From sequence record MN510331.1: a DNA stretch of 39,704 nt. One strand, given 5' to 3'. The notes beneath the pieces are model-generated. The model was given only the letters and a program-made list of their open reading frames with translations. It did not search any database and had not been told where the DNA came from. Positions 7,942-22,939 of the stretch are shown here, piece after piece (within the stretch, counting starts at the first letter, position 1; each line of letters starts with the position of its first letter). A program made the translations under genes and the position numbers. The stretch is from Escherichia phage vB_EcoP_PR_Kaz2018.

Positions 7942-8169
7942 ATGACGCGTGAAGAACTTCAAGCTGCATCGGCGAAGCGTAGAGCGCAAAGATTTTATCG
8001 TGCATACAAGGCGCTGCGTAAGGGTATGTCGATGTTCAAATTAGGACACAGGGAGTATTGTGATAGCGACCTCCTACCGTTTGCTTATAAGAAGACACCT
8101 AGTCTGATTATCAAGGTAGAGGAGTATGAATATTCTGATGACTGTGTTATGGTGAACCGCTATGCTTAA
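7942..8169 (+). CDS. Hypothetical protein (75 aa)
   Basis: Track ORF 7897..8169 starts on TTG; first ATG at 7942 with AAAGG 8 nt upstream. Confidence 0.55.
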   Translation: MTREELQAASAKRRAQRFYRAYKALRKGMSMFKLGHREYCDSDLLPFAYKKTPSLIIKVEEYEYSDDCVMVNRYA

Positions 8170-8266
8170 CGATGTTCTGTACTTCGGCTTAATTTGCGCT
8201 GGAGTAGGCGCGTTACTTCGCTTAATGTATTGGGAGATAGAGGTGGAATATGGTAAAACCAAGTGA
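8162..8266 (+). CDS. Hypothetical small hydrophobic peptide (34 aa)
   Basis: Hand-translated [34 protein letters not shown]; ATG overlaps the preceding stop. Confidence 0.3.
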   Translation: MLNDVLYFGLICAGVGALLRLMYWEIEVEYGKTK

Positions 8267-8348
8267 GTGGTGCCGTGAGATGTATGAGAAGACGCTCAAC
8301 CCGGACTACATCACGTTATACAACCAATGGAAGGAGCGCGGTTTATGA
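8250..8348 (+). CDS. Hypothetical small protein (32 aa)
   Basis: RBS GGAGATAGAGGTGG upstream; stop overlaps the gene 2 start (ATGA). Confidence 0.35.
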
Positions 8349-14936: not shown

Positions 14937-15534
14937 TAACATCATGGTGCACATTAAATCTGGTGAACTCGGTGAACTCCTAATGGGACAATACCGAGCC
15001 AAGCCATAGGGAGGATGTATGAGAGGCAAGAAGTTAATTCTTGAGGCCACTGAGACTGGCTGCATAATCCCTACGTCACATAAATTGAATCAGGATGGAT
15101 ACTTCCGAAAGAGGACTAACGGTGTCCTTGAGATGTATCATAGAACTGTATGGATTAAAGCTAATGGTCCAATACCTGAAGGTTTCGAAGTAGACCACAA
15201 GTGTCGTAATAGAGCTTGTTGCAACGTCGAACATCTACAAGTATTAGACCGTGACTCACACTTAGTCAAGACCAACCAAGAGCGATACGCTGCTAGGAAG
15301 CTAGAAGCACGAGACTACTGGGTAGAGACTGGGTGTACAGGAACGAAGTTAGCCGAAGTATTCAATGTGTCGTTCTCAGCCGCCTGTGGGTGGATTAGAG
15401 AGTGGAAGGCGTAGAGACTATCCGAAAGGAGTAGGGCCGTGGGTGAGATTCCCACGTAACCCGAAGCGCCAGACAGTCACCTCAAAGACTGATGATATAG
15501 TCCGACACTTCCAGTAATGGGAGAATACAGAAAG
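14937..15534 (+). mobile_element. Group I intron in the DNA polymerase gene, containing an HNH endonuclease ORF
   Basis: 5' exon ends in U (14936) and intron ends in G (15534); candidate guide sequence GUGAAC (14963..14968 or 14972..14977) pairs with exon GUUCAU with a U-G wobble; flanking exons rejoin in frame. Confidence 0.8.
15019..15414 (+). CDS. HNH homing endonuclease encoded within the intron
   Basis: Motif EVDHKCRNRACCNVEHLQVLDRDSH is a His-Asn-His metal-finger signature; RBS GGGAGG upstream. Confidence 0.85.
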   Translation: MRGKKLILEATETGCIIPTSHKLNQDGYFRKRTNGVLEMYHRTVWIKANGPIPEGFEVDHKCRNRACCNVEHLQVLDRDSHLVKTNQERYAARKLEARDYWVETGCTGTKLAEVFNVSFSAACGWIREWKA

Positions 15535-20110: not shown

Positions 20111-20995
20111 ATGTCCCAATCAGTTTATGCCGAGTTCGGCGTTAGCCCTAATGCAATCACTGGCTCCGTTGAGGACCTTAACGAACACCAACAGTCTATG
20201 CTGGAGAAGGACGTAGCTGTCCGTGATGGCGATGATGCCATTACCTTCAAGCAACTGGAAGCCGAGCAGGAAGAGGCGACCGAAGAAGACGAGAACGTCG
20301 AAGAGACTGAGGGTGCTGAAGACCACGAGTCCGATGACGAAGAGTCTGAGACCGACGGTGAGCAGCCTGAGTTCATTGAACTGGGTGATGCACCGAAAGA
20401 GCTGACCGAAAGTGTCACCGCTCTGGATGAAAACGAAGCTGCATTCGACGACATGGTGTCTTCTGCTGTGGAAGCTGGCAAGGTCACTGCTGATGAAATT
20501 ACCGCTATCAAGGCTGAATACGCCAAGGACGGTAAGCTGTCTGACGCATCCTACGCTAAGTTGCAGGAAGCAGGTTACACCAAGCGTTTCGTAGATTCGT
20601 TTGTCCGTGGTCAGGAAGCTCTGGCTGAACAGTATGCTGCTGGAGTGGTTCGCTACGCTGGTGGAGCTGAACAGTTTAACCGCATTCTGTCTCACCTTGA
20701 GTCCAACGACCCGTCAACTCGTGAAGCATTGGAAGCTGCCATCGTTCGTAAGGACATTGCGACTACCAAAGCTCTGCTGAATCTGGCTGGCAAGACTCTG
20801 GGTAAAGCTGTGGGTGTTAAACCTCAGCGCACCATCACCACTCAGGCTAAACCTGTTGTAGCACCTAAGGCTCCTCAGACCGAAGCATTCAGCTCCAAGG
20901 CTGACATGATTAAGGCTATGAGTGACCCGCGATACCTTCGTGACGCTAAGTACACGATGGAAGTACGCGCTAAGGTAGCTGCCTCAAGCCTGTAG
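20111..20995 (+). CDS. 9: Capsid assembly (scaffolding) protein
   Basis: Acidic; VYAEFGV, ESYAKL.EAGYTK.FVDSFVRGQEAL.EQY, IKAMSDPRY match T7 gp9; start at ATG 20111 (AAGGAG 9 nt upstream) rather than track GTG 20075. Confidence 0.9.
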   Translation: MSQSVYAEFGVSPNAITGSVEDLNEHQQSMLEKDVAVRDGDDAITFKQLEAEQEEATEEDENVEETEGAEDHESDDEESETDGEQPEFIELGDAPKELTESVTALDENEAAFDDMVSSAVEAGKVTADEITAIKAEYAKDGKLSDASYAKLQEAGYTKRFVDSFVRGQEALAEQYAAGVVRYAGGAEQFNRILSHLESNDPSTREALEAAIVRKDIATTKALLNLAGKTLGKAVGVKPQRTITTQAKPVVAPKAPQTEAFSSKADMIKAMSDPRYLRDAKYTMEVRAKVAASSL

Positions 20996-20996
20996 G

Positions 20997-21019
20997 ACTA
21001 AACTATCACTATAGGGAGA
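20997..21019 (+). promoter_or_regulatory. Phage-RNAP promoter for the capsid gene (closest to the full GGGAGA consensus)
   Basis: ACTAAACTATCACTATA-GGGAGA, +1 G at 21014. Confidence 0.9.
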
Positions 21020-21135: not shown

Positions 21136-22179
21136 ATGGCAAACGTTCCGGGTCAGAAAGTTGGTACAGACCAAGGTAAAGGCAAATCTGGTTCCGACGC
21201 TCTGGCGTTGTTCCTGAAGGTCTTTGCTGGTGAAGTCCTGACTGCATTCACTCGCCGCTCTGTAACCGCTGACAAGCATATTGTCCGTACCATTCAGAAC
21301 GGTAAGTCTGCTCAGTTCCCGGTCATGGGTCGCACCTCTGGTGTGTATCTGGCTCCGGGTGAGCGACTGTCCGATAAGCGTAAAGGTATCAAACATACCG
21401 AGAAAGTGATTACCATTGATGGTCTGCTGACTGCCGATGTGATGATTTTCGACATTGAAGACGCGATGAACCACTATGACGTGGCTGGCGAGTACTCCAA
21501 CCAGTTGGGCGAAGCTCTGGCTATCGCTGCCGATGGTGCGGTACTGGCTGAGATGGCTATTCTGTGTAACCTACCGGCTGCATCTGATGAAAACATCGCT
21601 GGTCTTGGCAAAGCGTCTGTGCTGGAAGTTGGTACTAAAGCCGACCTGAACACTCCGGCTAAGCTGGGTGAAGCAATCATCGGTCAACTGACCATTGCTC
21701 GTGCGAAGCTGACATCCAACTACGTTCCTGCTGGCGACCGTTACTTCTACACCACGCCTGACAACTACTCTGCAATCCTCGCGGCTCTGATGCCGAACGC
21801 TGCTAACTATGCTGCGCTGATTGACCCAGAGACTGGTAACATCCGTAACGTAATGGGCTTCGTGGTTGTTGAAGTTCCACACTTGACTCAGGGTGGTGCT
21901 GGGGAAACTCGTGGTGACGATGGTATCACTATTGCGACTGGTCAGAAGCATGCCTTCCCAGCTACTGCTACTGGTGATGTTAAAGTTGCTCTGGACAACG
22001 TTGTGGGCCTGTTCTCTCACCGTTCTGCTGTAGGTACTGTTAAGCTGCGTGACTTGGCGCTGGAACGTGACCGTGACGTCGATGCTCAGGGCGACCTGAT
22101 TGTTGGTAAGTACGCTATGGGTCACGGAGGTCTGCGTCCAGAAGCGGCAGGAGCACTGGTTTTCACAGCCGCGGCGTAA
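21136..22179 (+). CDS. 10A: Major capsid protein
   Basis: LALFLKVF.GEVLTAF, KHTEKVITIDGLLTADV, DIEDAMNHYDV, YAMGHGGLRPEAAG match T7 gp10A. Confidence 0.97.
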   Translation: MANVPGQKVGTDQGKGKSGSDALALFLKVFAGEVLTAFTRRSVTADKHIVRTIQNGKSAQFPVMGRTSGVYLAPGERLSDKRKGIKHTEKVITIDGLLTADVMIFDIEDAMNHYDVAGEYSNQLGEALAIAADGAVLAEMAILCNLPAASDENIAGLGKASVLEVGTKADLNTPAKLGEAIIGQLTIARAKLTSNYVPAGDRYFYTTPDNYSAILAALMPNAANYAALIDPETGNIRNVMGFVVVEVPHLTQGGAGETRGDDGITIATGQKHAFPATATGDVKVALDNVVGLFSHRSAVGTVKLRDLALERDRDVDAQGDLIVGKYAMGHGGLRPEAAGALVFTAAA

Positions 22180-22310
22180 GCACTTTTAGCCAACCTAACG
22201 TCGCTACAGTAGCGGCTGCACCTGAAGAGGAGACTCTAACTCCTCAACAGAAAGCTGCGCGTACTCGTGCTGCGAACAGGGCCGATAAACTGGCTGAGTC
22301 CAACAACTAA
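22158..22310 (+). other. 10B: Slippery site G GUU UUC and -1-frame extension: predicted minor capsid protein 10B
   Basis: GGTTTTC at 22158..22164, five codons before the 10A stop; the -1 frame is open for ~50 codons to TAA 22308..22310. Confidence 0.55.
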
Positions 22311-22314
22311 TTGA

Positions 22315-22352
22315 AACCCCTTGGGTGCCTTCGGGTGCTTGAGGGGTTTTTG
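22315..22352 (+). terminator. Intrinsic terminator after the capsid gene (T-phi equivalent)
   Basis: AACCCCTTGGGTGCCTTCGGGTGCTTGAGGGGTTTTTG: long GC-rich hairpin plus U-run, nearly identical in form to T7 T-phi. Confidence 0.85.
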
Positions 22353-22372
22353 CTTAAAGTGAGAGTAAACCT

Positions 22373-22939
22373 ATGCCTCAATACATTCCACTGAATGCTA
22401 ACGATGACTTAGACGCCATCAACGATATGTTAGCTGCTATCGGTGAACCAGCAGTCCTACAGCTTGACGAAGGTAACGCTGACGTCTCGAACGCTCAACG
22501 CATCCTGCATCGTGTCAATCGTCAGGTCCAAGCTAAAGGCTGGAACTTTAACATCAACGAAGCTGCTGTCCTGACGCCTGATGTCCAAGACAACAGGATT
22601 CGATTCCTGCAGTCTTACCTTCGGGTCATGACTGCTGGTGCTACCAGTTACTACAGCAACATGGGGGGCTATCTCTATGACCTGTCCACTCAGTCCACCA
22701 CTTTCACCGACCCTATCACGGTAGAGCTTGTGGAGATGAAGCCATTCTCCGAGATGCCTGTGGTCTTCAGGGACTACATCGTCACTAAAGCTAGCCGTGA
22801 GTTCAACGCTAAGTTCTTCGGTAGCCCAGAGTCTGAACTGTACCTTCGTGAGCAGGAAGCAGAACTCTATCAGCAGGTCATGGAATACGAGATGGATACT
22901 GGTCGCTACAACATGATGTCCGACATTGGGAGGGACTAA
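22373..22939 (+). CDS. 11: Tail tubular protein A
   Basis: N- and C-terminal segments (RILHRVNRQVQAKGWNFNI, FRDYIVTKASREFN, YEMD.G.YNM) match T7 gp11. Confidence 0.95.
   Translation: MPQYIPLNANDDLDAINDMLAAIGEPAVLQLDEGNADVSNAQRILHRVNRQVQAKGWNFNINEAAVLTPDVQDNRIRFLQSYLRVMTAGATSYYSNMGGYLYDLSTQSTTFTDPITVELVEMKPFSEMPVVFRDYIVTKASREFNAKFFGSPESELYLREQEAELYQQVMEYEMDTGRYNMMSDIGRD

Follow-up and report, generated by a model that had tools for sequence, protein, structure and literature searches.

Gene 10 of the phage DNA analyzed here (the window, a single stretch of 39,704 nt) very probably directs the synthesis of two capsid proteins by the programmed -1 ribosomal frameshift of T7-like gene 10, with the minor capsid protein 10B made by slippage near the end of the major capsid gene, 10A. 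Most ribosomes would read 10A to its stop codon (TAA, 22177-22179), and a minority would slip back one base on the heptamer G GUU UUC (22158-22164), where tRNA-Phe would move from UUC to UUU and tRNA-Val in the P-site would re-pair loosely, from GUU to GGU. Translation by the slipped ribosomes would continue in the -1 frame for another 48 codons, until a TAA (22308-22310) that closely precedes the Tphi terminator. The resulting 10B would carry an Ala/Arg/Lys/Glu-rich tail on the body of 10A, and would co-assemble into the head with that tail exposed. As in T7, stimulation may originate in the terminator's 5' side, possibly together with a local hairpin that includes the 10A stop.

The site is a re-identification of a textbook recoding signal, already known and, as K1F g10b, published. 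The -1 frameshift between genes 10A and 10B of T7 was reportedly described by Condron, Atkins and Gesteland in 1991. The efficiency of frameshifting in T7 gene 10 is about 10%; for the window we infer both an efficiency and the stimulatory elements.

Relation to phage K1F

The top whole-genome match to the window in the phage collection was coliphage K1F (DQ111067.1), with which it is colinear by genome comparison. Base-for-base alignment gave 95.3% identity, with 1,875 substitutions and 0 indels over 39,704 nt; the substitutions fall mainly at third codon positions, and all K1F genes are intact in the window. The window is thus a close variant of K1F, in the genus Kayfunavirus. Because there are no indels, K1F gene coordinates carry over directly, and this transfer places scaffold gene 9 at 20111-20995 and tail gene 11 at 22373-22939, on either side of the capsid gene.

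The indel-free alignment itself merits comment, as relatives of comparable identity required 5-8 BLAST pieces. Three stretches show zero differences between the window and K1F, at 22176-22365, 7942-8348 and 15001-15500, the last being the homing-endonuclease region within the DNA polymerase gene. With these features the window resembles a consensus built on a K1F scaffold, or else a diversified copy, more than an isolate that was assembled independently.

Capsid gene and slippery heptamer

Gene 10A, encoding the major capsid protein, occupies 21136..22179 of the + strand in the zero frame (347 aa, 36.2 kDa, or 36.22 kDa to two decimals, from the ORF listing), coordinates that are the same as those of the K1F capsid CDS, AAZ72994.1. 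The protein matches Pfam PF21703, Gp10A-like (E=4.7e-105), and phrog_267 (E=4e-101), as well as solved T7-like capsid structures with E values down to 1e-213. Between the window and K1F there are 84 substitutions in 10A, giving 15 amino acid changes. Located 5' of gene 10 is CACTATAGGGAGA (21007..21019, + strand), which from its resemblance to the T7 promoter consensus is presumably the core of a T7-type late promoter; in the record of phage EcoDS1, genes 9 and 10 are separated by an annotated phi promoter.

The heptamer (GGTTTTC, 22158..22164, + strand) spans Val342-Phe343 of the zero frame, its first G being the last base of codon 341 (CTG) and its remaining six bases forming codons 342 (GTT) and 343 (TTC). 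The initial annotation had identified this sequence as the T7 gene 10 slippery site, and the T7 record (NC_001604) indeed has G GTT TTC in the same phase. It had also placed the heptamer five codons before the 10A stop, which agrees with a TAA at 22177-22179, five codons past TTC (codon 343 of 347). In T7 the Phe codon lies 4 codons before the 10A stop, as compared with 5 in the window. K1F gene 10 has an identical heptamer and identical gene coordinates. G GUU UUC does not fit the pattern X XXY YYZ, in that the P-site part is G GU and not X XX, and "G_GU in phage T7 gene 10" has been listed as an intermediate case of P-site re-pairing (PMC5009743).

The -1 frame and its predicted product

Read from 22158, the -1 frame has 50 sense codons (GFHSRGVSTFSQPNVATVAAAPEEETLTPQQKAARTRAANRADKLAESNN) followed by the TAA at 22308-22310, as anticipated in the earlier claim of a frame open for about 50 codons. 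The further claim that the frame ends just before the terminator was likewise borne out, with the TAA ending 2-5 nt before the hairpin (22313-22350). 10B is accordingly written as join(21136..22164, 22164..22310), a predicted protein of 391 aa and 41.0 kDa (40.98), in which the -1-frame part (22164..22310, + strand) supplies 48 residues unique to 10B. An extension of about 50 residues and about 5 kDa had been proposed; the mass stands (40.98 versus 36.22 kDa), and the residue count is slightly lower, at a net gain of 44, the 48 new residues replacing the last 4 of 10A. A peptide diagnostic of the slip junction is predicted as ...ALVFHSR/GVSTFSQPNVATVAAAPEEETLTPQQK. The tail matches phrog_12582, "head protein" (E=3e-10), the PHROG families being built from such tails. 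Zero-frame readthrough of the 10A stop was considered and rejected, since a TAG would end it after only 10 more residues.

The K1F tail and terminator are 100% identical to those of the window (22176-22365), whereas at the junction the last four 10A residues are TAAA in the window and SPAE in K1F, and the first tail residues are FHSRGVS in the window and FQPSGVS in K1F. With T7, whose record (NC_001604) annotates 10B as a joined CDS of 398 aa, the comparison is more informative. The predicted 10B aligns with T7 10B at 68% identity through the shift junction and into the tail, where the motif TVAAxPEE...ETLTPxQxAARTRAANxAxKxAE is common to both. The T7 tail is 8 residues longer overall than that of the window, and, as in the window, translation in its -1 frame stops shortly ahead of the terminator, here Tphi. 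Across the 43 tail codons aligned, the 58 differences between the window and T7 are distributed 13/13/32 at -1-frame codon positions 1/2/3 (chi-square p=0.002), a pattern that, judged from these aligned sequences, is the signature of -1-frame translation of the tail; the differing codons comprise 18 synonymous and 17 non-synonymous ones. The K1F-type group itself shows few tail changes and no clear synonymous excess, the variation there being too low to show constraint.

How much of this could be expected by chance was evaluated in the window. GGTTTTC occurs three times against 4.1 expected, so the heptamer alone is not enriched, and at 2.5% of out-of-frame positions inside genes the -1 frame stays open for 50 codons or more; an in-phase heptamer with an open -1 frame at a gene end is expected about 1e-3 times per genome. 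Within the window the evidence thus exceeds chance only weakly, and the decisive weight is carried by the comparative evidence. The two single frequencies are what one would cite for a -1 ORF that is a chance open frame beside a coincidental heptamer, or else a separately initiated small gene, and some annotators and PHROGs do treat such tails as separate "head protein" ORFs. However, the full open stretch of the frame (22110..22310, + strand) has no ATG, GTG or TTG in frame from 22110 to 22307, which excludes independent initiation, and no + strand ORF reaching 30 aa is listed for this frame across that stretch. The tail is additionally conserved with T7 at the protein level and is tightly associated with the slip site (see below), and GFP placed on the tail end labels K1F virions (PMC6277420). 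A chance frame or an independent small gene is therefore a hardly credible account of these observations.

Slip site and tail among T7-like phages

The joint occurrence of site and tail was evaluated in 78 capsid-homologous loci from IMG/VR, with the slip site compared to the downstream region per distinct sequence (about 60 distinct). An in-phase N GTT TTC is present in 27 sequences, and all but one of these have a -1 extension of 42-91 codons. The T3-type site, an in-phase NNA AAG, is present in 11, with an extension of 86-177 codons in 10 of them. Neither site is found in 23 sequences, which typically have GTC TTC; tail-less relatives use GTC, GTA or GTG before TTC, and where the site is missing the -1 frame either gives a junk translation of the terminator or continues into gene 11. 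The spacer between 10A and gene 11 differs correspondingly, being 193-427 nt in loci with a slip site and 23-169 nt in those without. Of 35 sequences with a slip site in phase, 33 have a spacer of at least 190 nt, as compared with 0 of 22 that lack one (Fisher p=8e-14, from counts that are not phylogenetically independent). The distance from the end of the -1 ORF to gene 11 in slip-site loci is 57-73 nt in most, and 34-164 nt in nearly all.

The one N GTT TTC sequence lacking an extension (L017 / L096, IMGVR_UViG_2974615076_000001) has a one-base deletion at the 10A stop, GTAAGC to GTAGC, that leaves a K1F-type tail intact and out of the -1 frame. Either the deletion is an error of sequencing or the phage is a natural 10B null.

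A scan with a degenerate DNA pattern coding for AARTRAAN recovered 42 T7-like loci whose capsid gene has a tail of this type in its -1 frame. N GTT TTC is present in 41 of these 42 phages, with the first base being G in 38, A in 2 and C in 1, and the remaining locus (L108) has G GTA AAG. The codon choice GTT TTC is thus, in the sequences sampled, fixed with the tail and the first base is free, which fits a slip occurring mainly by movement of tRNA-Phe from UUC to UUU with relaxed re-pairing in the P-site. A search with tblastn using the 43-aa tail against the phage collection found one record only, the low-complexity filter having probably masked the Ala/Arg-rich query, and no Rfam match at gathering thresholds was found over the whole window, no curated family covering the frameshift element.

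The same protein would be obtained if phage RNA polymerase, rather than the ribosome, slipped on the T run, since deletion of one U from the mRNA would yield an identical product. T runs known to cause polymerase slippage are far longer than four, and the run here comprises only four T's. Furthermore, what is conserved is a codon-phased hexamer, GTT TTC, or NNA AAG elsewhere, as tRNA re-pairing predicts, and in the literature on T7 the slip is taken to be ribosomal (PMC5009743). Transcriptional slippage is considered highly improbable on these grounds.

Behind the same G GTT TTC, many Kayfunavirus-like relatives have a different -1 tail of about 88 codons (...TTFKALSTEGPTLETYSSTVGTSLKVDFPELSDVTDWSLL...SLYFKATSGVEGLVIVGYDGSPVRSFNVSFTN), located about 1 kb into the locus just past the capsid stop (L005-L016, L019-L022, L025-L026, L069 and L073-L074), for which there was no Pfam match. 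As different tails are found behind the same site, 10B tails are exchangeable modules, and the slip site ahead of them stays constant. A lysine-codon shift (NNA AAG) accompanies Big_2 Ig-like tails in T3-like relatives (T3 itself, L084 at about 1420-1692, and L030, L039-L041, L044, L047, L051, L053, L057 and L063), and in L027 a U-type slip site is joined to a Big_2 tail.

Candidate stimulatory elements

Downstream of the 10B stop is a Tphi-like intrinsic terminator (22313..22351, + strand), in which a strong hairpin (22313-22350) precedes a T run. The sequence of the 5' side, AACCCCTTGGG, is exactly that of T7 Tphi and includes CCCC (22317-22320), and the equivalent element is annotated as terminator phiTE in the EcoDS1 record. 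Frameshifting in T7 gene 10 involves the terminator CCCC, more than 200 nt 3' of the site, with the stimulation left unexplained (PMC5009743). By the present comparison the slip site is separated from the terminator CCCC by about 150 nt (about 153) in the window versus about 180-200 nt in T7.

Closer to the slip site, a candidate 3' stimulatory hairpin is located at 22171..22204 (+ strand), in which GCGGCGU (22171-22177) pairs with ACGUCGC (22198-22204) across a 20-nt loop, beginning after a 6-nt spacer from the heptamer and reaching, with the last base of its 5' arm, the T of the 10A stop codon. In the window an outer helix could form as an alternative, between CAGCCGC (22166-22172) and GCGGCUG (22212-22218). 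Helices of 7-12 bp, 4-8 nt past the slip site and with the 10A stop in the 5' arm, are found in the K1F-, T7- and RKL-type groups, all with the short AARTRAAN-type tail, with arms of AGCGGCGU/ACGUCGCU in the K1F type, GGAGUAAUGCU/AGUGUUACUUC in the T7 type and GCUUAACUUC/GAAGUUGAGC in the third (RKL) group, so that the arm sequences differ between T7 and the window. Equivalent helix positions are seen in L086-L155 and in T7 (L083, at about 1198-1260). In most sequences fewer than 5% of capsid-gene control positions equal the helix.

Other observations are less favorable to a role for this structure. No double compensatory changes were found within groups in the candidate helix, the changes being one-sided and wobble-compatible. 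The helix was not found in relatives with tails of about 88 codons nor in T3-like phages, and minimum free energies downstream of the site, calculated for 50-75-nt windows, rank within the top 5-40% of those across the genome and are not distinctive. Between L151 and the RKL type, one helix pair is altered on both sides, from U-A to G-U. The helix at 22171..22204 is accordingly put forward as a candidate stimulator only. It is conceivable, and in our estimate rather unlikely, that a helix containing the stop codon acts as an unrecognised proximal stimulator of frameshifting, or as a modulator of termination, that complements the distal terminator element of T7.

Sequence differences near the heptamer bear on how well the inherited site might work. 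The window differs from K1F at 22152, 22166, 22167, 22168, 22170 and 22175. The first of these, C in K1F to A, creates a Shine-Dalgarno-like AGGAG (22149-22153) 4 nt upstream of the slip site that is present in none of the relatives inspected, and that might, at such short spacing, modulate frameshifting. The five substitutions 3' of the heptamer (22166-22175), which like AGGAG were seen in none of the relatives examined, could together with it alter efficiency relative to K1F, which is a counterpoint to the explanation preferred here. In the extreme, the site and ORF would have been inherited with frameshifting much reduced or lost, owing to ACAGCCGCGGCG after the heptamer and AGGAG before it, and the MFE fold of the window is indeed unlike those of K1F and other relatives. 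However, the ACAGC variant after the heptamer occurs naturally with full tails (in L037, L005 and others), and tail-bearing phages differ widely in the codons that directly follow the heptamer. The window also keeps the 7-bp helix and the terminator, and in a T7 helper plasmid a short GGTTTTC cassette by itself provided the gene 10 frameshift signal (PMC1635266). Loss or strong reduction of frameshifting in the window therefore appears improbable.

The -1 cassettes of the E. coli dnaX and IS911 type are likewise read by tandem slippage on bacterial ribosomes, and, as in those cassettes, a hairpin might begin some 6 nt past the site in the window. They differ in having the heptamer X XXY YYZ, which the window does not, and the documented 3' element of T7 is distal, in the terminator. 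The window site also lacks a conserved upstream Shine-Dalgarno stimulator.

10B in related phages and its annotation

That the window's 10B would be made and built into virions is argued by analogy from the literature on K1F, T7 and Kvp1. K1F g10b was reported to be produced by -1 frameshift with the "addition of 44 triplets", and GFP fused to its C-terminus gave stable fluorescent phage (PMC6277420). The same study suggested that K1F requires 10B, which T7 can do without. These 44 triplets equal the 44 codons of the window's -1 frame past the 10A stop. In a later study EGF was added at the same K1F g10b C-terminus, as a GFP-EGF fusion that was again stable and fluorescent (PMC10367136). In Kluyvera phage Kvp1, a member of a different phage genus that resembles the window in its poly-U/Phe site, 10B was proven by mass spectrometry of a larger capsid band, with the shift at TTTTCA (PMC2579914). 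The same paper describes shifts at lysine codons in T3 and phiYeO3-12, which like the window make a minor capsid 10B by -1 frameshift near the end of gene 10. The T3 slip site is C CCA AAG, at a lysine codon, as opposed to G GUU UUC in the window, and the T3 tail is a Big_2 Ig-like domain of about 85 residues (Pfam E=4e-10), as opposed to the short AARTRAAN tail. The prediction of a 10B minor capsid protein made in the initial annotation is thus supported by T7 homology, by the co-occurrence of slip site and tail, and by the published K1F g10b.

In sequence records, however, 10B is seldom to be found. Most K1F-like records list only the 347-aa "capsid", as does the K1F record DQ111067, or mislabel it as "minor capsid protein". 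The latter name is given to the 347-aa 10A in PQ133619.1, OM867676.1, MZ923531.2 and others, and in PDB 9vvq as well. A joined 10B CDS is present in few of the matched records listed, among which those of K1F, EcoDS1 and P7124 were examined directly; the EcoDS1 entry carries the remarks "slippery sequence" and "region of similarity to gp10B".

In summary, the value of the finding is practical and not conceptual, since automated annotation of K1F-like genomes usually misses 10B, and the correct joined 10B CDS should be annotated in these genomes. The comparative helix provides a cheap hypothesis for a stimulator, the T7 stimulator having been listed as unexplained in a 2016 recoding review (PMC5009743). 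The C-terminus of 10B, for its part, is a proven display site on K1F for GFP, EGF and SpyTag.
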